Shown here: piece after piece, positions 14,024-64,000 of the stretch | Layout of the letters: each line of letters opens with the position of its first letter | Numbering within the stretch: the stretch's first letter is position 1 | Source of the DNA: Acidobacteriota bacterium | GTDB taxonomy: Bacteria > Acidobacteriota > Thermoanaerobaculia > Gp7-AA8 > JAHWKK01 | Assembly: GCA_019347945.1 (NCBI GenBank) | Contig: JAHWKK010000003.1 | Span: 31,059-95,058, forward strand | Direction: 5' to 3' | DNA length: 64,000 nucleotides | The notes under the pieces: generated by a model | Database searches by the model: none | Told to the model about the DNA's origin: nothing | What the model saw: only the letters and a program-made list of their open reading frames with translations | Position numbers and translations under genes: made by a program

Positions 14024-16627
<2,604 letters not shown>

Positions 16628-36874: not shown

Positions 36875-36983
36875 CTCGATTCTCCTGTCGTACCTGGTCA
36901 ATTTCAGCATCCAATGTCATGCCGTTTCCAATAATAGTATGCCGAACTGATGCCCTCCACCTCATCGGGGGAAGGATCAGACA

Positions 36984-37014
36984 TGAAAAAAGGGCAGGGA
37001 CGAATCCCTGCCCT
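36984..37014 (-). terminator. Rho-independent terminator after pilin gene copy 1
   Basis: On the minus strand: AGGGCAGGGA ttcgtc CCTGCCCT followed by TTTTTT. Confidence 0.6.
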
Positions 37015-37038
37015 CGAGAAAGCGGATGATCGAGATGC

Positions 37039-37548: not shown

Positions 37549-37713
37549 TTTCGTTTCTCCCTTGTTTGTTGTTGTCCGGCGCTAACCGGTTCTGCTAATA
37601 AGTCGGCGGGAAGCGGGAAAAAATACAGCCGGGTCATTTTTCTTTCGCTCTGGAAAAAGTCGACGTCCGATGAGCTGGATTCGGAGCCATCCTGAAGTGG
37701 TCAATCACACGCA

Positions 37714-37743
37714 AAAAAAGGGCAGGGACGAATCCCTGCCCTT
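37714..37743 (-). terminator. Rho-independent terminator after pilin gene copy 2 (same hairpin as 36984..37014)
   Basis: Identical GGGCAGGGAcgaatcCCTGCCCT hairpin plus a T-run on the sense (minus) strand. Confidence 0.6.
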
Positions 37744-37766
37744 TGAAAAACGGATGGTCGAGATGC

Positions 37767-38276: not shown

Positions 38277-38836
38277 TTTTTGTTTCTCCCTTGTTTGTTG
38301 TTGTCCGGCGCTAACCGGTTCTGCTCCATAGGTCGGCGGGAGAGGAGAAAAAATACAGGCGGGCCAATTCTTATTTTGCGGAGCTCGATCCGGATCAGCC
38401 AAAATGAGGGGCGACCTGGAGATCTGCGCGAGCAGCGGCGTCGAAGAAAAACCTCAGTGGTGCTCGATCAGCAGGGGAAGACCGTTTGGTACCTTCCCTC
38501 GGGGCGCGTGATTGATGCGAGCTCGAAAGTGTTCTCACCGCTGGGATCGATCCGCGATCCGCCATTGTTCTCCGGCAGCCGTGGATGAGGATGTCAGACG
38601 CGCCCGTATTTTTTTTGATCCCTGGCGGACTCATGAGTTGAGAACCGTACCGGGCGGGCAGCGCAGCCCGGTGCTCCCGCGCTGGCGCTAACCGGTATTT
38701 TCACCGGGTGGAGCCGGCTCGTCCGGTACGGTTCTCCTTGGGATGCTTCTGATCGCGTAACTGTCGGGAAATTCGACGTTTGTCGGATTATGAACAGGTA
38801 CGCCAAAGCTGTTTTTCATGCTAGCTCTCTTGTTTA

Positions 38837-39778: not shown

Positions 39779-40106
39779 TAAGCCGCGGGACAATCAGGAG
39801 AGGAGAGGTGTGTTCGCAGTCGTACTCCTGACGAACGCGGCAGACCCGCAGGTGGCGCTCACGGAGTCGAAGTCGCCCGCGGTCTGAGAAGACACTCCGC
39901 ATGCTCTTTGACAGCCTCTGAGATCCGGAAGGCGGTGGGGGGAGGGTTTCCCGGACGCTTTCGCGGGGCCTGTCAACTTGCATGCTCCCGTCGCTGGAAG
40001 TCGAGACAGGTGAGCGAAGCACGGTGGGCGTGATGGGTGGTCGCTCCGCCCGAGTCAGGCTCTCTCCGCGTTTCGTGTATTCTCAGAAGATTCGAAGGTG
40101 ATCGGT

Positions 40107-43100
40107 ATGACTCTTTCTGAAAAGCGCCCTGGAACATGGAGGCTTGTTCTCGCGCTGTTCCTCGCTGCGCCTACGACTGCGGGCGCGGCTGAGAAGCCTG
40201 CGGCGCTCGATCCGACGGGGCCGATCCGCCAGTACGTCCACCAGAAGTGGGGACAGGAGTCGAAGCTGCCGGTGACAACTCTGCTCTCACTGGCTCAGAC
40301 TTCGGACGGCTATCTCTGGATCGGCACTGAAGAGGGGCTGGTTCGGTTTGACGGAGTTACCTTTGAAACATTCACGACCGGCGACAGTCCAGGGCTGGCC
40401 GGAAACTACATCAACACACTCCTCGTGACCCGTGAGGGTTCGCTGCTGATCGGCACGGGCGAGGGTGGTTTCTCGCTCCTCGACGACGGACGATTCACTG
40501 CATTCGGACTCGCACACGGTCTGCTGAGCGAGAAGGTTTCGGCTCTTCTGGAGGCTCGGGACGGGACGATCTGGATCGGCACCGGGGAAGGGCTGCAGGC
40601 CTGGGACCGAAAGACCTTTCGCTCCTTCACGGGTGAGCACGGGCTTCCTTCAGGAAAAATCACTGCTCTCGCGGAGGATCGGTCCGGAGACCTGTGGGTC
40701 GCCGCCGCGGACAAGATTTCGCGCTTCGACGGCCGGAACTTCACGACCTACGAGCCCGCCGGGGGAGCCCCGGTCAAGGCGCTCCTGGCCGTCGAGGATT
40801 CTCTCTGGATCGGGACGAGCGGTGGAGGCCTCGTACGGCTCGAAGATGGCAACTTCCACAAGTTTTCCACAGCCGACGGGCTATCGGGTGACAACGTTCT
40901 CTCTCTCGCACAGGGAACCGGGGCAATCTGGATCGGGACAGGTGGGGCAAGCCTGGACCGATACGCCGGCGGAGAGTTCGCTTCATTCGATTCGGCTGAT
41001 GGGCTCGTCGGCGAGAACGTCTGGACGATCCTGGAAGATCGCGACGGGAGCGTCTGGAGCGGAGGGGCCGGAGGGCTGAACCGGTTCAAGACCTCGACCG
41101 TCCTCACCTATGGTACGCGCGACGGGCTGTCCCATCAGGTCGTCCTCCCGATTCTGCAGACCAGATCCGGAGATGTCTGGATCGGCACCGCTGGCGGCGG
41201 ACTCAATCGTTACAGGAAGGGTTCGTTCGACACCTTCACGACACGCGAGGGTCTGTCGGGTGACATCATTCTCTCGCTCTGGGAAGAGGCGGACGGAAGT
41301 CTGCTGGTTGCAACGGTCGGAGGGCTCGACCATTTCCACGACGGTCGTATCGACCGCTATGAACATGCAGATCAGATGTTTCAGGCGATCCCGCAGTCAC
41401 TGCATCGGGATCGGGACGGCGCCCTCTGGATCGGGACGACCGACCGAGGAGTGATCCGGATCGAGGATGGCGAAATCGCTCTCTTCACCACACGGGAGGG
41501 AATCGCAGGGAACAGCATTCTCGATATCCATGAAGATCGTGAAGGAGCTCTCTGGTTCGCGAGCGATGGTGGGGGACTGACCCGGTACAGCGAAGGGAGG
41601 TTCAGTACCATCACCACCCGCGAGGGACTGCCGACGAATGTGATCCTTTCAATCACCGAAGGCTCCGACGGCTCCCTCTGGCTCGGCTCGGTGGGAGCGG
41701 GCCTGATCCGGATCTTCGACGGCGCGATCACGTCCTACGGGCCGCGGGAGGGGTTCTCCGAGCATACCGTGTATCGAGCTCTCGAGGACGATCTTGGTCG
41801 GCTCTGGCTGAGCTCCACCCGAGGGATTACAGCGGTGGAAGTGAGCGCTCTCGATGAGCTCGCTGCCGGTCGTATCGACTCGATCAGTCCGCTTCGATTC
41901 GACCGGGACCACGGTATGAAGAGCAGTGAGTGCAACGGCGGCGTGGATCCGGCGGGGTGGAAGATGCGTGACGGGACCCTCTGGTTTCCCACGATGGACG
42001 GCGTCGCGGTGATCGATCCCGTGACTGCCGTACGGCGCATGGTGCCCCCCTCACCTGTGGTGATCGAGCGGGTTGTGATCGAGGGAGCTCCCGTCGATCC
42101 GGGTGAAGCGCGACTGATCGAGCGTCTCGCCGGCAAGTACGACGTCGAGATCGCGTACACCAGTCCGAGCCTTTACGACCCCGAGGGCGTGGAGTTTCGC
42201 TACCAGCTCGTGGGATTCGACCCGGGATGGATCGACGCGGGAGCTCGACGGGCGGCGTATTACACGCAGCTTCCGCCAGGGAATTACCATTTCCGGGTCG
42301 CTGCCGTGAACGGGGCGGGAGTCGTGGAGATGTCCGGAGACCCGATCGAGCTTCGTATTCGTCCTCGTCTCACCCAGCGACCTCTTTTCTACATCGGACT
42401 GCTGCTGGTTGCCGCGGCGGCAGTCATCGCCATCTACCGCTATCGCCTTCGCGCTTACGAGAAGCGACAGTCGGAGCTGGTGGCTCTGATCGAGGAGCGG
42501 GCAAGAGCGGAAGAGGCACTGCGGCAGAGCGAACAGCACTTCCGCTCTCTGATCGAGAATGCCTCCGACATTATCCTTGCCCTCGACCTGGATGGGCGAA
42601 TCCTCTACGCAAGTCCGTCCACCGCGCGAGTTCTCGGGTACCGTCCGGAGCAGATCGTGGATCGGCTGCTTTCGGATCTCGTGCATCCCGAGGACGAAGC
42701 TGCAGCGATGGTGGCACTGCGGGAGAAGACCAGCTCGAGCTCGTCGGTCTCCGTCTCGTTCCGCCTGCGGCATTCCGACGGCTCCTGGCGCTCTCTCGAG
42801 GCGGTCGCACGAAGACTGGCCGAGACTGGTGCAGCGGACTCACTCGTGGTGAACTGTCGCGACGTCACGGATCGAAATCTTCTGCAGTCTCAACTGGAGC
42901 AGGCACATCGACTGACGAGTCTCGGCAGCCTCGCTGCGACTATAGCTCACGAGTTCAATAATGTTCTGATGGGTGTTCAGCCGTTCACCGAGATCATTCA
43001 GCAGAAGAGCACCGGAGATCCTCTGCTTCAGAGCGCTGCAAAACAGATTTCCTCTGCGGTCGATCGTGGCAGGCGGATCACTGGCGAGGTCCTCCGTTAC

Positions 43101-44027
43101 GCGAGACCTTCGGAAGCTACGACGGCACCGTTCGACGTAGAGGCCTGGCTCCGAAACCTCGAGCCGGAGCTTAGAGCGCTCGTCGGCCCCGACATTGAGC
43201 TTCTGATCAGCGTCGATGACGCCGTCTCCGGAATCACAGGTGACGTACTGCAACTGAACCAGGTGATGACGAACCTCGTTCTGAATGCACGGCAGGCACT
43301 GGGGGATTCCGGAAGAATCGAGATCGACGCTCTCTCTCCGCGCCCGGGCGAACGTTACCACTTCGGTGTCGTCGACTCACCGGAGCAGTTCGTCCATCTG
43401 CTCGTTCGGGATTCCGGCACCGGAATGTCCGATGAGGTGCGGCGGCGGGTTTTCGAGCCGCTCTTCACCACGAAACGAACTGGAGGTACGGGGCTCGGAT
43501 TGACGGTCGCGCATCAGGTGGTTCAGGGGCACGGCGGCGAGATCATCGCCGAAAGCACACCGGGCGAAGGCTCCGTCTTTCACCTCTTCCTTCCACGTTC
43601 CGAGAATGCGGTCGCTCAATTCCCCGAACAGGAGACTCCTCTTCCCGAATCTTCTGGAAGAGCACTTTCCGGTCTTCGAATCGTGCTCGTCGAAGATGAC
43701 GAAAGCGTTCGTCTCGGCGTCGAGTCACTCCTGAAGAGTGAGAACATGGAGGTGGAAAGCGTCACCACGGGTCGAGATGCACTTCCTGCCATCGCCCAAT
43801 TTCGTCCCGATCTGGTCATCCTCGATCTCGGCCTGCCGGATATGGACGGCATCGACGTTTACAGGGACATCAACGGCCGATGGCCCGAGCTTCCGGTGAT
43901 CTTCTCGTCTGGCCACGGCGATCAGTCCCGCCTGGAGAAGTGCCTGGACAACCCCAGGGTCGGATTTCTCCTCAAGCCGTACGACGGCGAACGGTTGTTT
44001 CAGGAGATTCGGGTCCGCCTCGGTTGA
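40107..44027 (+). CDS. Hybrid sensor histidine kinase/response regulator with periplasmic propeller repeats, Y_Y_Y, PAS, HisKA, HATPase and REC (paralog of 17992..21582)
   Basis: ATG at 40107 after GAAGGTGA; the track gives GTG at 40098. Signal/TM segment, Reg_prop repeats (WIGTGEGL...), Y_Y_Y segment (FRYQLVGFDPGWIDAGARRAAYYTQLPPGNYHF), TM, PAS. H-box IAHEFNNVLMGVQPF. G-boxes DSGTGM and GTGLGLTVA. REC (VEDDESV...LDLGLPDMDG). Confidence 0.85.
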   Translation: MTLSEKRPGTWRLVLALFLAAPTTAGAAEKPAALDPTGPIRQYVHQKWGQESKLPVTTLLSLAQTSDGYLWIGTEEGLVRFDGVTFETFTTGDSPGLAGNYINTLLVTREGSLLIGTGEGGFSLLDDGRFTAFGLAHGLLSEKVSALLEARDGTIWIGTGEGLQAWDRKTFRSFTGEHGLPSGKITALAEDRSGDLWVAAADKISRFDGRNFTTYEPAGGAPVKALLAVEDSLWIGTSGGGLVRLEDGNFHKFSTADGLSGDNVLSLAQGTGAIWIGTGGASLDRYAGGEFASFDSADGLVGENVWTILEDRDGSVWSGGAGGLNRFKTSTVLTYGTRDGLSHQVVLPILQTRSGDVWIGTAGGGLNRYRKGSFDTFTTREGLSGDIILSLWEEADGSLLVATVGGLDHFHDGRIDRYEHADQMFQAIPQSLHRDRDGALWIGTTDRGVIRIEDGEIALFTTREGIAGNSILDIHEDREGALWFASDGGGLTRYSEGRFSTITTREGLPTNVILSITEGSDGSLWLGSVGAGLIRIFDGAITSYGPREGFSEHTVYRALEDDLGRLWLSSTRGITAVEVSALDELAAGRIDSISPLRFDRDHGMKSSECNGGVDPAGWKMRDGTLWFPTMDGVAVIDPVTAVRRMVPPSPVVIERVVIEGAPVDPGEARLIERLAGKYDVEIAYTSPSLYDPEGVEFRYQLVGFDPGWIDAGARRAAYYTQLPPGNYHFRVAAVNGAGVVEMSGDPIELRIRPRLTQRPLFYIGLLLVAAAAVIAIYRYRLRAYEKRQSELVALIEERARAEEALRQSEQHFRSLIENASDIILALDLDGRILYASPSTARVLGYRPEQIVDRLLSDLVHPEDEAAAMVALREKTSSSSSVSVSFRLRHSDGSWRSLEAVARRLAETGAADSLVVNCRDVTDRNLLQSQLEQAHRLTSLGSLAATIAHEFNNVLMGVQPFTEIIQQKSTGDPLLQSAAKQISSAVDRGRRITGEVLRYARPSEATTAPFDVEAWLRNLEPELRALVGPDIELLISVDDAVSGITGDVLQLNQVMTNLVLNARQALGDSGRIEIDALSPRPGERYHFGVVDSPEQFVHLLVRDSGTGMSDEVRRRVFEPLFTTKRTGGTGLGLTVAHQVVQGHGGEIIAESTPGEGSVFHLFLPRSENAVAQFPEQETPLPESSGRALSGLRIVLVEDDESVRLGVESLLKSENMEVESVTTGRDALPAIAQFRPDLVILDLGLPDMDGIDVYRDINGRWPELPVIFSSGHGDQSRLEKCLDNPRVGFLLKPYDGERLFQEIRVRLG

Positions 44028-44401: not shown

Positions 44402-44980
44402 ATGACTGGTGCCGGGCCGGCGGTCGCCCGAAGGTCTCTAAAACTGGTGACCGGAGCTGCCCCGGGGGTCCTTGATTTCCTCCTTCAGTCCGGGCTCCGC
44501 CCGCAGCTCGCAGGTTGTCTCCGCTTCAGGCAAGTCAAGGCGAAAGGCGAAGATTTTCTGAAACAAACCAGACAAGAGTACGAGCGTCCTCACCCGTCGG
44601 AGGGTTCGCGCCTGCGGTCCCTCATCTGGAGCATCGTCTCGCTTTTTTTCGGCTGGACGATTTTCTTTTACTGGTGGTCGATCGTTCTGAAGGAGACGAC
44701 GAGCGGAGCGTTCATCGACGTCATCGCCGGGCTGATGTTCGTCCTGGCGGTGCTGTTCATCGTCTCTATCTTCTGGATCGCCCACAACCTGCGACTCGCC
44801 CGGCGAGGGCGGCGCAGCAGTTCGACGCCTTATTTCCCGGGGTCGCGAGGCCGGGACAAGTTTGATCGATCACCGGTGATCGAGAACCTCGAGACGCTTC
44901 GGACTTGGCCGGTGGTAGTCGTCGATACTGATGAGGAGGGGAAGTCGTACGTTCGGGGTGACGAGGAGAGGGAGGCGTGA
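44402..44980 (+). CDS. PgaD-like two-TM inner-membrane protein (accessory subunit of a beta-glycan synthase); start uncertain
   Basis: Two TM helices (LIWSIVSLFFGWTIFFYWWSIVL; FIDVIAGLMFVLAVLFIVSIFWIAHNL) and a short basic tail. The stop overlaps the GT2 gene start (ATGA at 44977). The FYWWS-TM-TM arrangement resembles E. coli PgaD. Confidence 0.4.
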   Translation: MTGAGPAVARRSLKLVTGAAPGVLDFLLQSGLRPQLAGCLRFRQVKAKGEDFLKQTRQEYERPHPSEGSRLRSLIWSIVSLFFGWTIFFYWWSIVLKETTSGAFIDVIAGLMFVLAVLFIVSIFWIAHNLRLARRGRRSSSTPYFPGSRGRDKFDRSPVIENLETLRTWPVVVVDTDEEGKSYVRGDEEREA

Positions 44981-46236
44981 CGATCCTCTACAACGTCGTG
45001 CAGGCAATCGAAGCATCATTCATTTATCCGTACCTCCTTCGCTTCTACGGTTTCTATCCAATATTGATGGCGTTTACCTGGGTGGTGATGGCGATCTTCT
45101 TCTTTCGTCGCCGTGAGGCTGGAGCCGAGGCAACGCCGTACGCGGATGTGACCCCCTTCGTTTCAATCATCGTTCCGGCGTTCGACGAGGAGGCGTCGAT
45201 CGAACGGACCATTGAAGCTCTCCTGCAGCTCGACTATCCCGACTACGAGGTGGTCATCGTCAACGACGGCTCCCGAGACGGCACAACCCAGGCCGTGCGG
45301 CGTCATCTGAACGATTCTCGTGTCCGCCTCCTCGACAAGCGGATCAACGAAGGGAAGGCGATGGCGCTCAACGACGCCGTTCCGATCTGTCGCGGCGAGA
45401 TTCTTGTGTTTCTCGATGCCGACATTCTGACGACGCCAATGCTTCTTCATGCGCTGGTACCGCATTTTCTCTCGCCTCGCGTTGCAGCGGTGACAGGAAA
45501 TCCGCGCGTACTCAATCGTGGCTCGCTGCTCCGCGACCTTCAGACTCTGGAGTTCGCGTCGATCATCTCCGTGCAGCGTCGCGCCCAGCGCGTGTGGGGT
45601 CGAATACTGACGGTTTCAGGGGCGGTTTTTGCGGTACGTCGAACTGCTCTGATCAAAGTCGGCATGTTCAACCCGGAGATGGCAACCGAAGACATCGATC
45701 TCACCTGGAAACTGCAGCGAGATCTCTGGGACGTTCGTTACGAAGCGAGTGCCGTGGCGTGGATGCATGTACCGCCGACACTTCGAGAGCTCTGGAAGCA
45801 GAGACGGCGCTGGGCACGCGGGCTCGCTCAGGTGCTGAAGCGTCACTGGCGAGTACTCTTCACCTGGCAAGAGCGGCGAATGTGGCCGGTGTATTACGAG
45901 GCTTGTCTGTCGATCCTCTGGGCTTACACGTTTCTATTCGTCACCCTCTATTGGCTCGTGAGCTGGTTCGTCGGCTATCAGCCGGGGGGAGCATCACCGA
46001 TCCCGAACCTCTGGGGAATGATGATCGCGACCGCATGTATCACGCAGCTTCTCACCGGAGTGCTCATGGACAAGCGGTATGACGATGATCTCCCGCATCA
46101 CTTTCCCGTGGCAATCTTCTACCCGCTCGTCTACTGGATCCTGATGACGCTCATCACCGCGACATACACGATCGACGCGCTGGTGCGAAAGCCGCCGAAG
46201 ATGCAGACATGGAAGATAAGGAGGGCCTCCGAGTGA
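44977..46236 (+). CDS. Family 2 processive glycosyltransferase, PgaC/IcaA-like poly-beta-1,6-GlcNAc synthase
   Basis: N-terminal TM helices. GT-A core with IIVPAFDEE, DYEVVIVNDGSRDGT, FLDADI (DxD) and the QRRRWARG (QxxRW) processivity motif. Two C-terminal TM helices. 419 aa. Confidence 0.8.
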   Translation: MTILYNVVQAIEASFIYPYLLRFYGFYPILMAFTWVVMAIFFFRRREAGAEATPYADVTPFVSIIVPAFDEEASIERTIEALLQLDYPDYEVVIVNDGSRDGTTQAVRRHLNDSRVRLLDKRINEGKAMALNDAVPICRGEILVFLDADILTTPMLLHALVPHFLSPRVAAVTGNPRVLNRGSLLRDLQTLEFASIISVQRRAQRVWGRILTVSGAVFAVRRTALIKVGMFNPEMATEDIDLTWKLQRDLWDVRYEASAVAWMHVPPTLRELWKQRRRWARGLAQVLKRHWRVLFTWQERRMWPVYYEACLSILWAYTFLFVTLYWLVSWFVGYQPGGASPIPNLWGMMIATACITQLLTGVLMDKRYDDDLPHHFPVAIFYPLVYWILMTLITATYTIDALVRKPPKMQTWKIRRASE

Positions 46237-47813
46237 GACTCTTCGCTCTTTCCTGTCTGATGCTTCTCGGGGCCGTGAGTGTGACTGCGCAATCACCGGC
46301 GGATCTGATCCAGCGTGGAGACGAGGCAGCAAGACAGGATCGTCATGATGCAGCGATCGAAGCGTACGAAGCGGCAGTGGAGCTCGACCCTGCAATCCGG
46401 CCAGACCTGCTGCTTCGAATCGGACGCCAGCAACTGTGGGCTGGCCATACGGAAGAGGCCGCCGAGATCCTGGGGTCGTTCGTCGATCTGAATCCGGACC
46501 ACTGCGCCGGCCGCAACGACCTCGGGCTGGCTCTGGCCTGGGGCAACCGTCTCACCGAGGCACTCGAGCAGTACCGCTTCGTAGCCGGCCGCTGCCCTGA
46601 CCAGAGGATGACGGCGCTCCTGCGAACAGCGCTCGTGCTCCGATGGCTCGACCGTCCGGCCGAGGCCTCGGATGCATATGAGCAGGTATCGATCGAAGGG
46701 AACGCCGCGGACAGGCGCGAAGCGGAGACGGGTCTGGGTTTCATCGCTCTGTTGCTCGACCGCAATCGATCAGCCTTCCGGCGCTTCCTCGAGCTGTACG
46801 ATCCGTCCACAACTGATGGGGCAGCCGAAGGTCTGGCGATCTCCAACTACAGGCTTGGTAGAGTTGCGGCTGCGCGAGGACTGATCCGCGCGGCGGAAGA
46901 TCGGGGCGATCTGTCGCGCGACCTGCTGAATCTCCGGCAGTCGGTGGAATCGTTCGATCGATGGCAGGTTCGGTCCGATGGGACCGTTTTCGAAGATGGT
47001 GACGGAACCGGTTATCGGGGGGGAAAGCTCGGGCTTTCGAAGGGGTGGGATCTGCGCGGACGGGCGGAGCTCGCCACCGGACGATCAACGCTGGAAAATG
47101 GTTCCGACGAGATCGCGGGTACGTGGGTGGAGCTGACGGGCGAGCACCGCTGGAGTGATTCCGGGGCCGCCCGAGCTCGTCTTCGCAGGTCGAGCTTCGA
47201 TACCGGATGGGACCCCTGGAGCGGAGAGCTGCACTGGATTGCGACGCCCGACGACAATCATCGTTTCGACGTCGCGGTCGCACGTCTTCTCGTCACCGAC
47301 AATCTCGCAGCGATCGAGAACGACCTGCGCGGGGATTTCCTCTCGGCCGGTTTCGACCGGGATGTCGGATACCGGTTCACTCTCTCGGCTTCCGGGGATC
47401 TCACCCGATGGTCCGCCGGAAACGAGCGGGCGAGGATCCGGGCCTCTGTCGCAAAAATTTTCGACGGCGTTCCGCGGATGACCGTCTCCTGGCCCACGAT
47501 GGTCCAGTGGTACGACGAGCCGTTCCCCTTCAGGCTGTGGTCACCGGAGTATTACGTGGAGACCGGACCAGGGGTCAACGTCTATCGCCGATGGAAGCAG
47601 GTGTGGAATGTGAGCGCCTACGGTCGCACCGGCGTGCAAAAGGAGGAGGATCAGGACTGGAGGGTTCTCGGTGTGGCCCGTGTCGCGGTCGAGCGCGATC
47701 TGCGCGACTCGTGGGCACTGCGATTGAGCGCCGGCTGGTCGAACTCGAACGCTGCCGGGAGCGGAGGATTTCGCCGATCATCGGCTCAACTCGAGCTCGT
47801 TCGAAGATTCTGA
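46233..47813 (+). CDS. Outer-membrane export protein with N-terminal TPR repeats and a C-terminal beta-barrel (PgaA-like porin)
   Basis: GTG at 46233 overlaps the GT2 stop (GTGA) and gives signal peptide (M)RLFALSCLMLLGAVSVTAQ. TPR-like helical N-terminal half. C-terminal half has alternating beta-strand patterns and ends with an aromatic residue (..ELVRRF). The last ~170 bp is duplicated at 50774..50947. Confidence 0.5.
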   Translation: MRLFALSCLMLLGAVSVTAQSPADLIQRGDEAARQDRHDAAIEAYEAAVELDPAIRPDLLLRIGRQQLWAGHTEEAAEILGSFVDLNPDHCAGRNDLGLALAWGNRLTEALEQYRFVAGRCPDQRMTALLRTALVLRWLDRPAEASDAYEQVSIEGNAADRREAETGLGFIALLLDRNRSAFRRFLELYDPSTTDGAAEGLAISNYRLGRVAAARGLIRAAEDRGDLSRDLLNLRQSVESFDRWQVRSDGTVFEDGDGTGYRGGKLGLSKGWDLRGRAELATGRSTLENGSDEIAGTWVELTGEHRWSDSGAARARLRRSSFDTGWDPWSGELHWIATPDDNHRFDVAVARLLVTDNLAAIENDLRGDFLSAGFDRDVGYRFTLSASGDLTRWSAGNERARIRASVAKIFDGVPRMTVSWPTMVQWYDEPFPFRLWSPEYYVETGPGVNVYRRWKQVWNVSAYGRTGVQKEEDQDWRVLGVARVAVERDLRDSWALRLSAGWSNSNAAGSGGFRRSSAQLELVRRF

Positions 47814-47869
47814 CCTTCGAGACCGGTCGCGAATCTACCTTTTAACCCGCCACTCAACTGTCGTAAAGT
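47697..47869 (+). repeat. Direct repeat copy A' (3' end of the porin gene plus 55 bp downstream)
   Basis: About 88% identical to 50774..50947. Together they bracket the DUF5916 gene. Confidence 0.75.
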
Positions 47870-48085
47870 TCGACGATCTACAGATCGTTGGCCTGAAGGG
47901 AACGAAGCGCGACCTACGCTGTCAATTCGTGAGAGTTGCATGACCGGGCGGGCGAGCCGCCGCCAGGAGCTCGCGTGAATCAAGCCTCCGGCCAGACGTT
48001 GCATCGCGCAAGCTGTATCGCGTCGGCGTCTCCCAATCCGGTATTCTTCTTCACGACAGACGTAATGTGGGATGGAATTGTGCGA

Positions 48086-50686
48086 ATGAGACTCTTCTTC
48101 GTGGTCGGGGGTATGGCGCTGGCGATCTTTTCTTCGCAGCGCGCTCTGGCGACGTCCGACCTCAGCCTGCGGGGGGAGTACCGGGCAGTCCGGACCGACG
48201 AGACGCCGCGGATCGATGGCGAGCTTTCGGAGCGGATCTGGGAGACGGCCCCGGCGATCACGGACTTCGTCCAGCAGGAACCGGAGACCGGAAACGCTCC
48301 GACGGAGCGCACCGTCGTGCGGTTCATTTACGACGACAGCGCTCTCTACGTCGGTGCATCGCTCCGCGACAGCCATCCCGTGACGTCGAAGCTTGCCCGG
48401 CGCGATTCTTATCTCGCCTCCGACTGGCTCGCGGTGTATCTGGACACCCATTACGACCGCCGCACCGCACGAATGTTTCGCGTTAATCCCCTCGGCGTCC
48501 AACGCGATTCTCTCGTCGTCGAAGAAGACGAGGAGGATCGGAGCTGGGATGCCGTCTGGACGGCGGCAACGCGGGTCGTCGATGGCGGATGGACCGTCGA
48601 GATGCGGATTCCATTTGCGCAACTGCGATTTCCCGAGCGGGAGTCGCATGTGTGGGGATTCAACGTTGAACGCGAGATCTCCAGGAACAATGAAGTGATC
48701 CGACTCGTCCACGTGCCGCGCAACGAGACCGGCTTCGTGAAGCGCTTCGCTCGTCTCGTCGGGATCGAATCGGTTAATCCTCCGCGTCGCCTCGAGGTCC
48801 TTCCGTACGTCGTCGGCCGGGTCGGGTTGCGGAGCGCGGACGATCCATCCAACCCGTTCGACGGCGGAACCGAAGAGATGGAGCTCGGCCTGGATCTCGA
48901 GTATGGGCTTTCGTCGAATCTGACGCTTACGGCGGCTCTCAATCCGGACTTCGGGCAGGTCGAGGTCGATCCCGCGGAGGTGAATCTCACCGCATTCGAG
49001 CTCTTCTATCCCGAGCGGCGGCCGTTCTTTCTCGAGGGAGCGGACCTGCTTTCGTTCGGCGGACCGAGCCTGTTCTATTCACGGCGGATCGGGCGAAGTC
49101 CTCAGGGCCGGCCCGCTGCCTTCGACTTTGCCGAGCTTCCCGGACAGACGACGATCCTTGGAGCTGCGAAGATCACCGGCCGGACCGAGTCCGGCTGGTC
49201 GATCGCGGCTCTCGATGCGATCACCGAAGAAGAAGAGGCGCCGTTTCTTCTCGAGGGGGAGCGTGACTCGGCCGTCGTCGAGCCTCTGACCAATTACTTC
49301 GTCACCAGAGTCTCGAAGGATCTCAGCGGGGCCGGGCAGGTCAGTGCGATGTTGACGTCGGTCCATCGTTCGGGAACGACCATCCAGCCCGAGCTGCACG
49401 ATGAAGCTTACTCGGCGGGAGCCGATGGATATCAATACTTCGGCGAGCGCGAATACCTGCTCGACTGGTCGGCCTACGGATCGTACGTCGCGGGATCAGC
49501 CGAATCGATTCTGAGAACACAGCGATCATCGGCGCGATACTTCCAGAGACCGGATGCGACTCACCTCGAGATCGATCCCGGCCGGACGTCGCTCACTGGG
49601 TGGGGCGGATCGATGCGCTTCCGGAAGGTGAGCGGAAATCTCCGATATACGCTCACCGGACTTGCCGCATCGCCGGAGCTGGAGATCAACGACGCCGGCT
49701 TTCTCGGCAGGGTCGACGAATGGGCATCGCTGAATTCGATCGCGTGGGTCGATCCGGTTCCGCGCGGACGGTTGCGCAGTCGCTCGTATATCTTATGGAA
49801 GATCGATCGATTCAATTTCGGTGGAGATCACTTGCTCGACCGGAGCATGGGCATCGTTCGGTTCACCTACTCCAACTACTGGCAGACGTCGTGGAGAGTG
49901 ATTCACGATGCCAAGGCGTTCGACGATCGCTCGACTCGGGGAGGACCCCTCATCCGGACGCCGTCCAACACGTTCTATCAGGCATCAGTCAGCACGGACT
50001 TCAGAAAGAGGTGGTACGGGACCCTCCGCGGGAACATCGAGCACGGGGGTATGGATCTGGAGGCGCGAAGGTTGAACGTCGAGGTTTCCTATCGCCCGTC
50101 GCCGGCCATGACGATGAGTGTGGGCCCGTCGTGGTCACAGGTTCGTTTTCCATACCAGCACGTTCGTACCGTGGCGGACAGCACGGCCGGTCACACGTTC
50201 GGTTCACGGTACGTCTTCGCACCGATCGAGCGTAAGACACTCGAGCTTGCAACGCGCTTCGACTGGGCAATCAGCCGTACGCTCACTCTCGAGCTGTTTC
50301 TTCAGCCGTTTGTCTCGAGCGGTGACTATCTCGAGTTTCGAGAGCTGGAACGCCCTTCCTCTCGCGACTATGACTCCTACTCGGAGATCGGAGACGTGAG
50401 TTTCGATGAGGAGGCAAACCGATACACGATCGATCCGGACGGGAGCGGCCCCGCGCAGCCTTTTTCATTTCAGAACCCCGACTTCAACGTGCGTAGCCTG
50501 CGAGGCAATGTCGTCGTGCGGTGGGAGTTCCGGCCCGGTTCCGCCGCCTACCTCGTCTGGACTCAGAACCGGGCGGAGCGGGCACTCGTCGGCGATTTCG
50601 ACGCGGGCCGGGATTTCGATGCCCTCCTCGGCCTTGATGCCGATGACGTCATCCTGGTGAAGGTGAGCTACTGGCTCGGATTGTAG
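48086..50686 (+). CDS. DUF5916 family protein with an N-terminal CBM9-like carbohydrate-binding domain
   Basis: Signal peptide MRLFFVVGGMALAIFSSQRALA (ATG at 48086; track start at 47936). CBM9/DOMON-like N-terminus (RIDGELSERIWETAPAITDF...). Large beta-rich C-terminal region typical of DUF5916, as I remember that family. 867 aa from the chosen start. Confidence 0.7.
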   Translation: MRLFFVVGGMALAIFSSQRALATSDLSLRGEYRAVRTDETPRIDGELSERIWETAPAITDFVQQEPETGNAPTERTVVRFIYDDSALYVGASLRDSHPVTSKLARRDSYLASDWLAVYLDTHYDRRTARMFRVNPLGVQRDSLVVEEDEEDRSWDAVWTAATRVVDGGWTVEMRIPFAQLRFPERESHVWGFNVEREISRNNEVIRLVHVPRNETGFVKRFARLVGIESVNPPRRLEVLPYVVGRVGLRSADDPSNPFDGGTEEMELGLDLEYGLSSNLTLTAALNPDFGQVEVDPAEVNLTAFELFYPERRPFFLEGADLLSFGGPSLFYSRRIGRSPQGRPAAFDFAELPGQTTILGAAKITGRTESGWSIAALDAITEEEEAPFLLEGERDSAVVEPLTNYFVTRVSKDLSGAGQVSAMLTSVHRSGTTIQPELHDEAYSAGADGYQYFGEREYLLDWSAYGSYVAGSAESILRTQRSSARYFQRPDATHLEIDPGRTSLTGWGGSMRFRKVSGNLRYTLTGLAASPELEINDAGFLGRVDEWASLNSIAWVDPVPRGRLRSRSYILWKIDRFNFGGDHLLDRSMGIVRFTYSNYWQTSWRVIHDAKAFDDRSTRGGPLIRTPSNTFYQASVSTDFRKRWYGTLRGNIEHGGMDLEARRLNVEVSYRPSPAMTMSVGPSWSQVRFPYQHVRTVADSTAGHTFGSRYVFAPIERKTLELATRFDWAISRTLTLELFLQPFVSSGDYLEFRELERPSSRDYDSYSEIGDVSFDEEANRYTIDPDGSGPAQPFSFQNPDFNVRSLRGNVVVRWEFRPGSAAYLVWTQNRAERALVGDFDAGRDFDALLGLDADDVILVKVSYWLGL

Positions 50687-50693
50687 GGCGCGC

Positions 50694-50780
50694 TGTCAGC
50701 TGCGTGTCAGCGGCTTATAGCTCAGCATGAGAGGTTTCACGCCCAGAGACGCCAGCTCGGAAATCGCTACGGCGATCTGC
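50694..50780 (+). repeat. ~85 bp repeat L (tgtcagctgcgtgtcagcggcttatagctcagcatgagaggtttcacgcccagagac...), direct-repeat partner of 63803..63885
   Basis: About 90% identical to the copy at 63803..63885, same orientation. The two copies delimit a 13 kb segment that is almost entirely two-component signalling genes. Confidence 0.7.
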
Positions 50781-50947
50781 GCGATTCGTGGGCAATGTGA
50801 TTGAGCGTCGGCTGGTCGGACTCGAACGCCGCCGGGAGCGGAAGATTTCGCCGAACTTCGGCTCAACTCGAGCTCGTGCGAAAAATTCTGACCTTCGAGA
50901 TCGGTCGCGAATCTACCTTTTAACCCGCCACTCAACTGTCGTAAAGT
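50774..50947 (+). repeat. Direct repeat copy B' (displaced duplicate of the porin gene 3' end)
   Basis: Matches 47697..47869. Non-coding in context; it only generates spurious minus-strand ORFs. Confidence 0.75.
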
Positions 50948-51072
50948 CATGACGAAGTGGTAGAGAGGCATCTCTGGCGGGAGGAATTCTGTCCGACAAG
51001 CGCAGCCCTGATTCTCTGAAGCTGGCCCGACTCAGAATCGGTTCAGCAGTAACGGCGACGCTTCTGTATCTC

Positions 51073-52305
51073 GTGTTTGGTCTGCTCTGGATCGCGGTCA
51101 ACGGCGCGATCGTCGACAGGTTGTTCGACAATCCGGACCAGATCGTTGGTTTCGAGCTTCTGAAGGGAATCGTCTTCGTCCTGGTCTCGACGGCGCTGCT
51201 GTACCTCTTCATCACCCGGCACGCACGGCGGGTTCTCGAGTCGGAGATGGAGAGTGAGTCGAAGCTTTCGATGATGGTCGACCAGCTCCCCGCAATCCTG
51301 TGGACGATTGATTCTGATCTGATCATCGATTCGATCACGGGATCGGGGCTTCGCCTGCTCGGACCTGCGGCAAATCAGAGTCTCGGGAGGAATGCGACCG
51401 ACCTGGTTCCACGATTTGCCGCAGACGTGCTCGAGAAGGCAGTTAGGGGGACTCCAGGGACGTATGTCATCGAGTTTGAAGATCGAATATTGCGGACGTG
51501 GGTCGAGCCGATGCGAAGCGATGGGGATCTCGTCGGTGCGATCGCGCTGTCGATCGACATCACGGAGCAGGAAGCAGTCCGCAGGAACCTGGAGGCTTCC
51601 ATGCGGGCACTCTGGCGGGTCCAGGACGAGCTGGTCGAGAAGAGCCGGGCACTCGAAAGATCCTCGGCGCAGCTGATCGACGCTCAGGAATCAGAAAGAG
51701 AGAGGATCGCCCGCGAGCTTCATGACGAGCTCGGCGGGATCTTCACCTCCCTCAGTTTCGACGTTGCGCTGATCGGCGAGAACGCTGCTGATCCGGCACT
51801 CGTGACCGAGCGAAGCAGTGAAATGCTCCGCCGCATCGACGGTGCGATGAAGCGAGTGAGAGAGATTGCCCACGACCTCCGGCCGAAGGTGCTCGACGAC
51901 TTCGGGCTGGTCGCCGCGATCGAGGATCTCGTCGCTGCGTTCTCCGACCGCTACGGCATCGAGACGAATCTGTCGAGTCGCCCGGAGGAGATCACCGTCG
52001 GGAGGGGTTACGACATCATGCTCTACCGGATCGTTCAGGAAGCACTGACGAACGTCGTGAAACATGCCGCGGCGACTCGTGCTGAAGTGAGGTTGAGGTT
52101 GTCTGATCACCATGTGGTTGCGGAGATCCGGGACGACGGAAGGGGCATCCGACCGGAAGAGATGGATGCGACGGGCTCACTCGGACTCGTGGGGATGCGT
52201 GAACGAGCCGATATCCTGGGAGGGGACCTGGCGATCGAGCCATTCGCGGGGAAAGGAACGATCGTGAGAGTGAAGGTGCCGCTGAGCAGGAGGGAGCAGT
52301 CATGA
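51073..52305 (+). CDS. Sensor histidine kinase, NarL/LuxR-partner type (PAS + HisKA_3 + HATPase_c)
   Basis: GTG start. TM N-terminus, PAS-like segment. HisKA_3 H-box ERERIARELHDELGG. HATPase_c motifs (EALTNVVKHA, DDGRGI, GSLGLVGMRERA). The stop overlaps the next gene's start. Confidence 0.85.
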   Translation: MFGLLWIAVNGAIVDRLFDNPDQIVGFELLKGIVFVLVSTALLYLFITRHARRVLESEMESESKLSMMVDQLPAILWTIDSDLIIDSITGSGLRLLGPAANQSLGRNATDLVPRFAADVLEKAVRGTPGTYVIEFEDRILRTWVEPMRSDGDLVGAIALSIDITEQEAVRRNLEASMRALWRVQDELVEKSRALERSSAQLIDAQESERERIARELHDELGGIFTSLSFDVALIGENAADPALVTERSSEMLRRIDGAMKRVREIAHDLRPKVLDDFGLVAAIEDLVAAFSDRYGIETNLSSRPEEITVGRGYDIMLYRIVQEALTNVVKHAAATRAEVRLRLSDHHVVAEIRDDGRGIRPEEMDATGSLGLVGMRERADILGGDLAIEPFAGKGTIVRVKVPLSRREQS

Positions 52306-52934
52306 TCCGGATCCTTCTCGTCGACGATCACGCCCTGGTCCGGGCCGGCCTGCGCCGGATCCTCGAGACGCAGCAGGATATGGAAGTGGCGGGGGAAGCA
52401 GGAACTGGTGCCGAGGCGCTCGACCTGATCCGAGCCGGCGAGCTCGACATCGTTCTTCTCGACCTGTCGCTTCCCGATTTCAGCGGGATCGATCTGATGA
52501 AGTCGATCCTGGCTGCAGATCCATCGAGGAAGATTCTCGTTCTGAGCATGCATCCCGAGGAGAGCTACGCCCGGCGGGTGATGCGCTCAGGGGCCGTAGG
52601 TTACCTCAACAAGGAAGCCGCTCCGGAGCTCCTGATCACGGCGATCCGTAAGGTTGCCGCAGGTGGCCGCTTCGTCAGTCCCGGTCTCGCGGAGCTTCTC
52701 GCAATCGACCTCGCCGAAGATGACACCGAGTCGCCCCACGAGCGGCTCTCCGATCGGGAGTTCGAGGTGTTCGAGAGAATCGTCCGCGGTGAATCCGTCT
52801 CCCAGATAGCGGCCACACTCGATCTGAGCCCGAAAACCATCTCGACCCATCGGAGCCGGATCCTCCAGAAGATGGACCTCCGCAACAACGCCGATCTGAT
52901 CCGTTACGCGATCGATCAGGGACTGCTGAGCTAG
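52302..52934 (+). CDS. LuxR/NarL family response regulator
   Basis: REC (ILLVDDHALVRAGL...LLDLSLPDFSG) plus a C-terminal LuxR HTH (LSDREFEVFERIVRGESVSQIAATLDLSPKTISTHRSRILQKMD). ATGA overlap with the kinase gene. Confidence 0.9.
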   Translation: MIRILLVDDHALVRAGLRRILETQQDMEVAGEAGTGAEALDLIRAGELDIVLLDLSLPDFSGIDLMKSILAADPSRKILVLSMHPEESYARRVMRSGAVGYLNKEAAPELLITAIRKVAAGGRFVSPGLAELLAIDLAEDDTESPHERLSDREFEVFERIVRGESVSQIAATLDLSPKTISTHRSRILQKMDLRNNADLIRYAIDQGLLS

Positions 52935-53184
52935 GGCAGCAGGGATGAAAAATTGAAAGTGGTTTTTGCTCCGGTTGGAGGGAAATGAACTGAGTCGGAT
53001 GCTCGGCAACAGCCTCCGGTCTCCCCGTTTTCTCCTTCCTCAATCATTGTCAGACATCCCCTACACGATCGGGGGACATCGACCGATACCGCACGTCGGG
53101 CCGACGCCCTATCGTGGTGTACATGGAAAACCAGTGTATTGACGCTTCATCCGGGTGCGCGGCGCCGCGAGGAGCTGACCGCCG

Positions 53185-53604
53185 ATGAGCTTCAACGACA
53201 GACAGCCGAGGATTCTCATCGCCGACGACGACGACGTGATGCTCATCGGCGTTGCGGAGCTTCTTCGCAGACGGGGCTACGAGGTCGAGGCGACTGACCG
53301 GCTCGAGCTCAGCAATGGCTCCGGACCGTTCGACCTAATCATCTTCGACCCGCTGGTCGAGGGAGACCTCGATGCCGCACGACAGTTCGTTGCATCCGCA
53401 CGTCAGTCGAACCCTCCGCCGTTCCTGATCGTCGTCTCCGAATTCATCGAAAGTCTCAGGGATGTCGGTGCGCGTGATGAGCGACGCGCACTTCTCCATG
53501 TGAAACCTGTCCGGGTTGCAGAACTGGCCGAATCTGTCGAATCGCTGTTGCGCGAGCGCGAGATGTCCGAGGTCCTCACGATCATCGAGGGGGATACGGC
53601 GTGA
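53185..53604 (+). CDS. Single-domain response regulator (CheY-like receiver)
   Basis: GAGGAG RBS. Acidic pocket ILIADDDD; phospho-acceptor in LIIFDP; conserved K in HVKPV. 139 aa. The stop overlaps the next kinase gene. Confidence 0.65.
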   Translation: MSFNDRQPRILIADDDDVMLIGVAELLRRRGYEVEATDRLELSNGSGPFDLIIFDPLVEGDLDAARQFVASARQSNPPPFLIVVSEFIESLRDVGARDERRALLHVKPVRVAELAESVESLLREREMSEVLTIIEGDTA

Positions 53605-55088
53605 ATCGCCTGAGCGAAAGACTGACGAGCCGCCACGGGCGCGCTCCATTCATCTGGCGTTCCGTGTTACTGGGCGGTGCTTCGCTGATGATCGCTTTAT
53701 CGGTCGCGAATCTCGCCGGGTGGGTGATCGGGTCGGAGATACTGACGAGCTGGATCGACCTGAGTGTCGAGGCCATGCTCCTCATCACCATTCTCTCCAC
53801 CATCATTCTCGTGATGGTCTTGAACCTCCATACACGCGACGAACGGGAGCGCGCGCTGCGCAGGGAACGCGACCGGGAGGCCGAAAAACGACAGGTGATG
53901 TGGAATCTCTCCCGAGACATGATGGTGATCGCGAATCCGGAAAGGAATCTCGTGGACGTCAACCCCGCCTGGACCACCACCCTCGGATGGTCCCGCGAAG
54001 AGCTTCTGGGCCGGCGGTACGAGGAGCTCCTCCATCCGGACGATCGTGCGAGGACGGAAGAAGAGATCGGACGCATTTCCGACAGTCAATCGACGGTTCT
54101 CTTCACCAATCGTTACCGCAGTAGGGACGGAAGCTACAGGTCGCTGCAATGGCACTCGGTACGTGAGGAAAAGGGCGAGATATTCGGAGTCGCGCGGGAT
54201 GTCACCGAGATCGTCAGGGCGAGCGAGACACTCCATAATCTCAACCGGGAGCTCGAGAGCCGAGTCAGACTCCGCACCCGTGACCTGGAGACCGCCAATC
54301 GCGAGCTCGAATCGTTCAGCTATGCAGTCTCGCACGACCTGCGGGCACCCCTTCGGGCGATCGAGGGATTCAGTCGGATGGTGATTGAGCGGCACAGCGA
54401 GGATCTTCCCGAGCAGGCCCGCCACTACCTCGAACGGGTACGCACCGCCTCGAGTCGCATGGGAGAGATCATCGACGGGCTCCTCTCGCTGTCGAAGTTC
54501 AGCCGCGGCGATTTGCGAACCGAGACCGTGAACCTCAGTGAGATCGCGTCAGACATCGTCGAAGATCTTCGTGTCGCGGATCCTGATCGGAATGCAAAAG
54601 TCACCATCGAACGGAAGATGCACACCACAGGAGATCGAAGACTGCTTCAGTCGCTGCTGCTGAACCTGATCTCGAATGCCTGGAAGTTCAGCTCTGAAAG
54701 AGATCCGGCAGTCATCGAAATCGGGTCCAGTGTCAATGGCCGCATCACCGAGTTCCATGTTCGCGACAACGGCGCTGGATTCGACCAGAAACATGTGGAA
54801 AAACTGTTCAAGCCGTTTCAGCGTCTTCATTCGATCGAAGAATTCGATGGCACCGGACTCGGCCTGGCCACAGTCCAACGGATCGTATCGAGACACGGTG
54901 GCGCTGTCTGGGCAGAGGGTGAGCTCGAGAAGGGAGCGACCTTCCGGTTCACGCTCCCGTACGCGGAAACTCCCGAACATTCGATTGAGGGCGCGCAGAG
55001 TGCAGGCTCTCAGTCATCGACAGGTCGAGAACCCGACAACATAAACTACTCAGAATCTACCGGACAAGGAGTCAGTACTGATGCCTAA
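53601..55088 (+). CDS. Membrane-bound PAS sensor histidine kinase
   Basis: GTG start overlapping the upstream stop (GTGA). Two TM helices, PAS ([41 protein letters not shown]). HisKA ([16 protein letters not shown]). HATPase_c ([27 protein letters not shown]). Confidence 0.8.
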
Positions 55089-55503
55089 GAGCAAAAAGCG
55101 AATCCTCCTCGTCGAGGACAACCCCGACGACCGGGAGCTGATGAGGGTCGCCCTGGAGGAGAATCGGCTGGTCAATGAGGTTCTCGTAGCAAAGGATGGT
55201 GAAGAGGCGATCGAGATTCTCGAGGGGGACGAGGACTTTGCGCTGATTCTGCTCGATCTTCAACTGCCAAAGATCAACGGTCATGAAGTGCTGCGGTTCA
55301 TCCGCTCGAGGACACGACGCGTTCCGGTCGTCGTACTCACCTCGTCCGATGAAGACCGTGACATCGTGGAGAGCTACGATCTCGGGGCCAACAGCTACGT
55401 CCGGAAACCGGTCGCGTTCGACGAGTTTCTCGAGGCGACCCGCCAGCTCGGAATGTACTGGCTTCTGCTCAACTCGGGACCACCTGCACGGAGCTCGGGA
55501 TGA
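55081..55503 (+). CDS. Single-domain response regulator (CheY-like)
   Basis: [14 protein letters not shown]...[15 protein letters not shown]...VVVLTSS...SYVRKP. The start overlaps the kinase stop; the stop overlaps the next gene (ATGA). Confidence 0.85.
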
Positions 55504-57791: not shown

Positions 57792-57804
57792 TCATCGTCA
57801 GCGG

Positions 57805-63479: not shown

Positions 63480-63684
63480 GGGCGCCTCCTAATGAAACGA
63501 CCACGAAATTGCGAGGACTTCGACCTTTGCAGCGCTTCGCTTGGCCTGATGTCCCACCCTGCAAGGTCCCTCGCTTGCCCGCCCGACCGCCCGCTCGGGA
63601 CGACGTCGGTTTGAGTATGGGGTGCGGAGTTTTGCGGCCTCCGGTTTTCATTCCCTCTTCACCGGCGCAACGCGCCGGTCAATT

Positions 63685-63776
63685 GCTCAGGATGACGAGT
63701 TTGTGAAGCGTCGACCGTGTCCGGCTCGCGGGAACTTAACCGGTTCTCTCGGCTTTTCGATTTGGGCAACAGCCCG
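63685..63776. repeat. Partial (single-arm) copy of the 12561..12830 palindromic element
   Basis: gctcaggatgacgagtttgtgaagcgtcga...ggttctctcggctt..ttgggcaacagcccg aligns with the right arm of the element at 12739..12826, with indels. Confidence 0.6.
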
Positions 63777-63802: not shown

Positions 63803-63885
63803 TGTCAGCTGCCTGCCAGCGGCTTATAGCTCAGCATGAGAGGTTTCACGCCCAGAGACACCAACTCGGAAATCGGTACAGTCTG
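63803..63885 (+). repeat. ~85 bp repeat R, partner of 50694..50780
   Basis: tgtcagctgcctgccagcggcttatagctcagcatgagaggtttcacgcccagagacaccaactcggaaatcggtacagtctg. Diverges from L on both sides. Confidence 0.7.
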
Positions 63886-64000
63886 ATTCGGTCGGAGGTG
63901 ATAGGAGCCGAGCTCCACAGGTTGCAACTTCGACTGGTCCGTCGTGAAGCGTGCTGCCTCTCCCCGCTTCGTCGCCATCCCGTACACCTGCACGCGGGCA

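Follow-up and report, generated by a model that had tools for sequence, protein, structure and literature searches.

Target-site duplications of transposons and insertion sequences are typically 2-14 nt long and identical, and they flank an element that has terminal inverted repeats and a transposase. Integrative elements such as phage 21 and e14, which target icd, and islands that target tRNA genes bring along a substitute for the 3′ end of the gene into which they insert. Here, we describe a locus in which two gene ends are duplicated, located within a 64,000-nt stretch of the metagenome-assembled genome (MAG) of an Acidobacteriota bacterium (contig JAHWKK010000003.1, positions 31,059 to 95,058; hereafter, the window). 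The locus comprises an exopolysaccharide export porin gene, a gene for a CBM9/DUF5916 outer-membrane protein, a 12.9-kb block of signaling genes, and a lipoprotein gene that we refer to as X, where both the 3′ end of the porin gene and the 3′ end of X occur twice. Among the closest described systems, transformation-induced merodiploids of Streptococcus pneumoniae, with their tandem-duplication joints, represent a related route (PMC3784515). Homology-facilitated illegitimate recombination, which is known from Escherichia coli conjugation (PMC3240628), has been proposed for the orphan arrays of type VI secretion system (T6SS) effector and immunity genes in Vibrio cholerae and for those at rhs loci (PMC5361080, which cites PMC2935791 for rhs genes); such arrays are associated with "C-terminal displacement".

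We consider it probable that our locus carries the scar of one duplicative recombination, combined with a change of gene content. The two repeat pairs interleave and are all in direct orientation: the porin gene end with its downstream tail (A; 47695-47869), the DUF5916 gene, and the end of X (L1; 50694-50772) are followed by a second porin end (A′; 50772-50947), the 12.9-kb block, and a second X end (L2; 63803-63881). Both pairs are equally diverged, with 13/174 differences (7.5%) between A and A′ and 6/79 (7.6%) between L1 and L2, and orthologues are more distant from each copy than its partner is. When we aligned the junction with L2, the relative L012, and the porin gene and read the sequence directly, L1 and A′ proved to share a microhomology of 1 nt where they meet. 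With L1 reading leftward and A′ rightward, two unrelated truncated genes are thus joined head-to-head (divergently) at their broken 5′ ends. This joint is illegitimate, involving neither a homologous crossover nor a k-mer overlap. Because a distal marker (X) is joined to a proximal one (the porin gene) in direct orientation, the order is that of a duplication-type joint and not that of an insertion. G+C content and skew displayed no compositional step at the insert. Table 1 lists the features of the locus.

The locus shares several traits with the merodiploids of S. pneumoniae, namely interleaved markers of equal age, one novel joint that connects a distal end to a proximal start, intact genes at the outer edges, and redundant material that is free to decay. 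In S. pneumoniae, however, duplicated units of 100-900 kb terminate within repeats that were already there (IS861 fragments), whereas our locus has an illegitimate joint (1 nt) and a unit of 3 kb, and the contents of the two units now differ. With the arrays formed by C-terminal displacement, the locus has in common a homology anchor in a conserved gene, an illegitimate join at the other end (here, with one shared G), a complete resident 3′ end, and an old tip that is pushed downstream as an orphan in direct orientation. It departs from those arrays, where the new tip is a different toxin domain with its immunity gene, as the old and new tips are here one sequence, the gene carried along encodes an unrelated outer-membrane protein, and the X tip lies at the other end as a further orphan. 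Like the integrative elements at icd and tRNA genes, it presents a diverged 3′-end copy that brackets an insert next to an intact target gene, but those elements encode a recombinase of the tyrosine or serine type and have an att core that is short and identical. We found neither here, and the far boundary of our locus is a truncated chromosomal gene. With target-site duplications, the likeness is restricted to direct target repeats flanking a segment, since the repeat here is 175 nt long, its copies have diverged by 7.5%, and both inverted repeats and a transposase are lacking.

Table 1. Features of the porin-DUF5916-X locus, in window coordinates.
Feature	Position	Strand	Details
Family-2 glycosyltransferase (PgaC-like synthase)	44977..46236	+	Pfam Glyco_tranf_2_3, E = 7e-35
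Exopolysaccharide export porin, intact	46233..47813	+	signal peptide, TPR domain, beta-barrel ending ...LELVRRF
Repeat copy 1 (A + tail)	47695..47869	+	last 38 porin codons, stop, 56-nt tail
Region upstream of DUF5916	47870..48085	+	no other match within window
CBM9 module + DUF5916 large beta-barrel outer-membrane protein, 866 aa	48086..50686	+	Pfam DUF5916 E = 3e-65, CBM9_1
L1, truncated 3′ end of lipoprotein gene X (last ~25 codons + stop)	50694..50772	-	minus-strand translation ...AISELASLGVKPLMLSYKPLTRS, then stop
Novel joint	50772..50773	.	X-derived sequence stops at G50772, porin-derived sequence starts at G50772
Repeat copy 2 (A′ + tail′)	50772..50947	+	dead porin 3′ fragment
12.9-kb block between tail′ and L2	50948..63802	+	Pfam
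HisKA_3 kinase	51073-52305		within 12.9-kb block
LuxR-type regulator	52302-52934		within 12.9-kb block
PAS kinases + receiver proteins	53185-60897		within 12.9-kb block
Ser/Thr kinase with TPR repeats	61170-63479		within 12.9-kb block
Degenerate palindromic element, like a miniature inverted-repeat transposable element (MITE)	63540..63776	+	full copy 12566-12826; ends 27 nt left of L2
L2 + body of gene X	63803..64000 (L2 63803-63881)	-	stop 63806-63808, frame open to window end
X sequence past the truncation point of L1			...CTACGG then TCTGATTCGG (body of X)

The second porin end is a decayed copy

A sequence-only reading of this DNA had reported the porin-derived direct repeat and proposed two origins for it, an unusually large target-site duplication or a recombination footprint. 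The repeat is present, with coordinates that lie within 2 nt of those reported, and it is no chance match. BLAST within the window yielded a gapped alignment of 174 columns at 92.5% identity (E = 3e-64), and the ~88% originally estimated was therefore too low. Over the 175 nt, we counted 12 substitutions and 1 indel. A repeat search returned 47695-47805 versus 50772-50882 (91%) and 47804-47869 versus 50882-50947 (97%), two blocks that sit one register apart as a result of the 1-nt indel. In the coding part, which in the AlphaFold model of the porin covers the last two strands of the barrel, identity amounts to 90.4% (11 substitutions plus 1 indel in 114), and the 56-nt tail after the stop codon (47814-47869 versus 50892-50947) is 98.2% identical, with a single difference as compared to the 12 in the adjoining coding part.

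The two copies are in different states. The porin open reading frame (ORF) is full-length, its final codons specifying the strand that closes the barrel and its stop codon lying at 47811-47813, and A′ is the displaced copy of its 3′ end. An in-frame TGA (50798-50800) and an extra nucleotide inserted near 50881 mark A′ as a dead fragment. Upon polarizing the differences between A and A′ with two outgroups (n = 12), we found 8 that were derived in A′, 2 that were derived in A, and 2 that were ambiguous. As the changes fell mostly in A′, the two copies started out nearly identical, and it is A′ that decayed afterward. A and A′ are more similar to each other (90.4%) than to the orthologues in two relatives, L001 and L002 (75-84%).

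These data bear on the idea that A′ is the last remnant of a second, mostly deleted paralogous porin operon that once lay between the DUF5916 gene and the kinase gene. While the window is indeed rich in paralogues (Reg_prop kinases and Ser/Thr kinases), the 98% identity of the noncoding tail and the position of A′ nearer to A than to orthologues speak for a recent copy, and the fragment starts exactly where the X fragment stops. We regard a paralogous remnant as extremely improbable.

The tail itself was also evaluated. It could not be aligned with the same position in the relatives, RNA folding of both the tail and L gave z-scores near 0 with no significant fold, and a promoter and terminator scan, the tail included, produced no match above the shuffled expectation. 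Conservation of the tail as a sign of function was tested and was marginal only (p = 0.04-0.08).

The L repeat is the coding tip of a lipoprotein gene

Directly left of A′ lies the L repeat, which the sequence-only reading had described as an 85-bp repeat. Its adjacency to the second porin copy stands; its length is 79 nt, with 6 mismatches between L1 and L2 and a one-base overlap between L1 and A′, and it is coding. On the minus strand, L1 and L2 encode a common peptide (...ISELASLGVKPLMLSYKPL..S, followed by the stop) that forms the tip of X. When we queried the 64-residue end of the X ORF, we obtained one homologue cluster, the full-length member of which (P0146, 145 residues) has a lipoprotein signal (LAGC). 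L1 begins 7 nt past the DUF5916 stop codon, and the same spacing is found in L012. L1 and L2 differ from L012 at 9 and 11 positions and share the derived loss of the ancestral stop codon (...LMLSY, then stop, in L012 and P0146). Derived changes number 2 in L1 and 4 in L2, where those in L2 are mostly non-synonymous, which fits relaxed constraint on X itself.

Several further observations concern X and L. The source MAG annotates X as a 62-aa hypothetical protein whose N-terminus matches the 145-aa relative and then diverges. To judge from these protein records rather than from DNA, the reading frame of X is probably broken by a frameshift shortly beyond the right end of the window, or an assembly indel error lies there. 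Candidate roles of L as a tRNA-like element or as a Pho-box promoter were dropped once the coding frame was seen, and neither Rfam (at gathering thresholds) nor ARAGORN returned a match anywhere in the window. On the minus strand, a chimeric ORF of 91 codons (50696-50971) opens opposite the dead porin fragment, in antisense, and runs on into the frame that derives from X, where it ends. Pfam does not recognize it, and the source record annotates no gene between the DUF5916 gene and the kinase gene.

The joint in the assembly

As the window stems from a MAG, whose proteins include MBW3563656-MBW3563667 with locus tags KY459_, and its layout resembles two alleles in tandem, we considered whether a metagenome assembler might have concatenated two strains, one with the order porin-DUF5916-X and the other with porin-kinase block-X. 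An independent Logan assembly breaks at both repeats and does not confirm the joint itself. Its contig with the identical DUF5916 gene measures 2,898 nt, which equals the unitig predicted at k = 31 (47840-50737) between two identical runs, of 46 nt in the tail and 43 nt in L. Because the contig has the length of this predicted unitig, both repeats are real branch points in the reads, although the contig does not span the joint. An assembly chimera is nevertheless very improbable. A′ is decayed, with its premature stop, frameshift, and mostly derived differences, and is thus no 3′ end of a working allele. Further, only 1 nt is shared at the joint, which leaves no k-mer overlap for a false join, the sequence contains no Ns, and the copies are 7.5% diverged rather than identical.

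DUF5916 and X are neighbors in a relative

The most informative relative was L012 (SRR32481277, 2,175 nt), in which the last 510 codons of the DUF5916 gene converge with an uninterrupted X. Its sequence is colinear with the window across the DUF5916 gene, the spacer, and X up to 50772, where colinearity breaks exactly (49152-50772 at 91.9%, and 63803-64000 at 89.4%). Since L012 has the DUF5916 gene beside an uninterrupted X, the DUF5916-X adjacency is native. Compared with L012, the additional DNA is the 12.9-kb block that lies rightward of the joint. At the other end of that block, a 14-kb contig (L013; ERZ28614091) carries an orthologue of the Ser/Thr kinase gene that is 91% identical. Its neighbors are all different, with the homology limited to 61154-63482, and the kinase-X adjacency is thus not conserved.

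Two Logan contigs, L001 (SRR22985139) and L002 (SRR21412977), contain the synthase and porin genes at 87-88% nucleotide identity to the window. Past the porin stop codon they no longer resemble the window, such that three genomes have three unrelated downstream sequences, as compared over the 72 and 222 nt by which L001 and L002 extend beyond that codon. L002 continues with a converging gene, present as a 29-aa fragment, that has no counterpart in the window. Orthologues of the porin in the outgroups share 83-87% protein identity, and a sliding-window comparison of the porin gene with L001 and L002 revealed no discontinuity or mosaic boundary near the 3′ end, with the outgroups being rather distant. 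We also observed that homology to relatives of ~90% identity tends to end at gene borders, namely 3-16 nt from those of the Ser/Thr kinase gene in L013 and exactly at the porin stop codon (47813) in L001 and L002. No X homologue was present among GTDB representatives, and neither the tail nor X matched the metagenomes of the Joint Genome Institute (JGI). An empty site was not recovered from the relatives' sequences, GTDB representatives, or JGI metagenomes.

This synteny weighs on the first of the two origins proposed earlier, in which the DUF5916 gene would be a ~2.9-kb cassette that inserted behind the porin gene, duplicated a ~175-nt target, and has L as its end. Such an insertion would account for repeats that bracket a single gene and for the intact porin. 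It also draws on the position of the DUF5916 gene, which is not conserved (the closest full-length homologues found, at 56-58% identity, lie in sugar clusters), on the three unrelated sequences past the porin stop in three related genomes, on an analogous kinase "insert" at a ZIP transporter gene, and on the unusually well conserved tail. But the supposed end of the cassette is a piece of a truncated chromosomal gene that natively adjoins the DUF5916 gene in L012, and the intact X that lies 13 kb downstream, direct and interleaved with the porin repeat, is left unexplained. Signs of mobility (an integrase or transposase, inverted repeats at the termini, end motifs in common) were not found: an inverted-repeat search gave no arms at 47870 or 50693, Pfam recognized nothing but CBM9/DUF5916 in 47870-50693 (the overlapping ORFs had no matches), no att-like core was seen there, and 47786-63479 contains no recombinase or transposase domains by Pfam. 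The repeats are moreover 7.5% diverged and, at 175 nt, far longer than any target-site duplication known to us. We therefore hold a cassette insertion to be improbable. Of the two proposed origins, the evidence favors the recombination footprint, given the joint between the X and porin tips, the interleaving, and L012, and gives no support to the giant target-site duplication.

A probable duplicative event followed or preceded by a change of content

In the scenario that we favor, the segment reaching from inside the porin gene to inside X (47695-50771; 3,077 nt comprising the porin tip, tail, DUF5916 gene, and X tip) would have been duplicated head-to-tail or circularized, where a head-to-tail duplication would generate the single novel joint at 50772. 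This may have occurred through a RecA-independent tandem duplication. Alternatively, a near-identical fragment may have integrated by one homologous crossover and one illegitimate end join, yielding a merodiploid through homology-facilitated illegitimate recombination. Either route would keep the porin and DUF5916 genes intact, with one surplus tip each of the porin gene and of X as the remainder. That one event lies behind both pairs, by which route it proceeded, and in what order it and the content change came, we infer.

A duplication of this kind does not suffice. Relative to a single-copy ancestor, the locus has three derived junctions, at 50772, at one of the two tail boundaries (47869/47870 or 50947/50948), and at 63802/63803, and because one duplication makes one junction, a second change is required. 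In this second change, the left unit would have kept the DUF5916 gene while the right unit came to carry the 12.9-kb block, either later, in the redundant copy, or as a pre-existing difference between donor and recipient. Accordingly, two orders can be envisaged. The 3,077-nt tandem duplication may have come first, after which the redundant second DUF5916 gene was replaced; or a strain polymorphism (DUF5916 gene versus block, between the same flanks) may have come first, followed by one-ended homologous integration of near-identical DNA. Both orders fit equally well.

Several points weigh against a duplication with a content change. The two units are unlike, as the DUF5916 gene in unit 1 and the 12.9-kb block in unit 2 have no similarity and different gene content, so that the second replacement must be assumed. 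The boundaries of this assumed event are the tail end and a position 2 nt outside the X stop codon, and why a boundary should hug that codon is an unexplained coincidence. The 1-nt microhomology is shorter than the 3-10 nt that is typical of joints from homology-facilitated illegitimate recombination. The tail, with 1/56 differences, has diverged less than the neutral expectation of ~7.5%, although marginally so (Fisher p = 0.06; Poisson p = 0.04-0.08). Lastly, we found no genome with the pre-event order (porin-tail-DUF5916-X) or with the alternative one (porin-tail-kinase).

The three junctions could also have been made at once, in a single template-switch replication error of the microhomology-mediated type. 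Here, a stalled fork would have copied the DUF5916 gene into X, switched ~3 kb back to the porin tip, copied 175 nt, and continued on a distant 12.9-kb template before returning to the X tip. This path would produce all three derived junctions (50772, 50947/50948, and 63802/63803), two small repeats of equal age, and the visible joint microhomology of at most 1 nt. It would extend to other scars in the window that flank large genes (see below), one of which is inverted (25360-25430 versus 29238-29308) and impossible to obtain by tandem duplication or Campbell-type integration, with the ZIP case as a further example. However, no second copy of the 12.9-kb block exists within the 64 kb examined, parental sequences are lacking for reading the microhomology of the other two junctions, and most documented instances of the mechanism come from eukaryotes and from amplification in E. 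coli. We consider a template switch unlikely, and a duplicative recombination with a change of content the better account. Read in the latter way, the scar is ordinary genome wear; the event behind it is of a familiar type and did not involve a mobile gene cassette.

Coding context of the locus

The porin gene encodes a protein of 526 aa that is identical to MAG protein P0001. Its AlphaFold model (mean predicted local distance difference test score, pLDDT, of 90.4) has TPR repeats at residues 22-239, which Pfam also recognized, and a barrel of ~17 strands at residues 245-525. Foldseek matched this model to BcsC, PelBC, and PgaA (4Y25; target template-modeling score, TM-score, of 0.80). The protein thus combines the traits of the PgaA/BcsC/PelB type, namely a periplasmic TPR domain followed by a beta-barrel (16-18 strands in this type) and an adjoining family-2 synthase. 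The synthase gene lies directly upstream of the porin gene, and glycosyltransferase-porin fusions occur in more distant Thermoanaerobaculia relatives (P0004-P0007). Other members of a pga operon (the PgaB deacetylase and PgaD) were not seen around the porin gene, where a 227-aa ORF upstream has no Pfam match. The earlier assignment as an export porin is supported by fold, and the label "Pga-like" appears, on the predicted model, to hold for fold only.

Between the two porin copies, the sequence-only reading had placed 2.9 kb with only the CBM9/DUF5916 gene, and this gene is indeed the sole Pfam-recognizable one there (48086-50686), the other ORFs having no Pfam match. Its product is identical to MAG protein P0014. 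The predicted structure (pLDDT 82) contains a CBM9 module and a very large beta-barrel, and Foldseek matched the former to CBM9 (1I82; target TM-score 0.75) and the latter to large barrels such as MtrB and TonB-dependent receptors, in support of the proposed carbohydrate-binding outer-membrane protein with a large barrel. A literature search on DUF5916 found no papers. The suggested functional link between this protein and the synthase/porin pair is, by contrast, unsupported, as the closest full-length homologues found are located after ROK, SIS, MFS, and aldo/keto-reductase genes, that is, in sugar-utilization clusters. The 12.9-kb block codes, by Pfam, solely for histidine kinases, response regulators, and a Ser/Thr kinase.

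Other scars within the window

The sequence-only reading had drawn a parallel between the DUF5916 locus and a ZIP/kinase locus, and we confirmed the duplication at the latter: the 5′ end of the ZIP transporter gene (~43 nt upstream plus the first 92 codons) at 13575-13892 duplicates that of the intact gene at 16880-17197, 3.3 kb to its right. The copies are 99% identical over 275 nt and only ~80% identical in the upstream 43 nt, and the left copy forms a 114-aa truncated ORF (13618-13962). The DNA between them carries, on the minus strand, a gene for a Ser/Thr kinase with PD40 repeats (14024-16627). The sequences of 131, 99, and 258 nt that flank the ZIP copies have no second copy within the window.

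Besides the ZIP/kinase locus, we found in the window a 71-nt inverted repeat (90%). One copy (29238-29308) lies within an Ice_binding-like/IPTL-CTERM gene (29114-29935, minus strand), and the other (25360-25430) is intergenic, beyond a gene for a 1,045-aa Ser/Thr kinase-STAND-TPR protein (25898-29035). Its inverted orientation is incompatible with both a target-site duplication and a tandem joint. An interleaved partner was found in the window for neither the ZIP case nor the 71-nt case.

A tandem duplication at 36976-38352, with a period of ~728 nt (300 nt at 95% and 84 nt at 80%), spans genes for DUF4402 subunits, with a gene for a PapD-like chaperone alongside (36047-36910), and has the appearance of common tandem paralogues within a cluster of the chaperone-usher type. 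Large paralogous genes occupy 17992-21582, 32090-36028 (minus strand), and 40098-44027, of which the first and third encode Reg_prop/Y_Y_Y hybrid histidine kinases, and the ~126-nt internal repeats of these paralogues make up most of the short direct-repeat families in the window. The full copy of the palindromic MITE-like element (12566-12826, ~260 nt) is bounded by terminal inverted repeats (GGGTTGTTGCTCAAACC) and contains a 46-nt hairpin in its interior (12618-12663/12708-12753).

Four scars per 64 kb, a density taken from the window alone with no genome-wide baseline, are suggestive of frequent illegitimate recombination around large signaling genes. One could go further and postulate that the lineage has a recurrent, possibly dedicated process that relocates single large genes (the DUF5916 gene and three Ser/Thr kinase genes) and leaves copies of neighboring gene ends of 70-315 nt in either orientation. 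We deem such a process distinctly unlikely.

Implications

Our data correct the picture of a mobile DUF5916 cassette that is bracketed by a giant target-site duplication. In its place, they provide a rearrangement scar that dates one duplicative event and reveals DUF5916 and X as native neighbors. They also advise caution in drawing a functional link from the placement of the DUF5916 gene behind the synthase/porin pair. The dead fragments of the porin and X genes may be miscalled by annotation pipelines. If the scar density were to hold across the genome, together with a shared distance (3-4 kb) and a gene-end rule, it would point to an undescribed gene-shuffling mechanism. And if the frequency of scars holds genome-wide, this uncultured lineage would constitute a natural record of illegitimate recombination.

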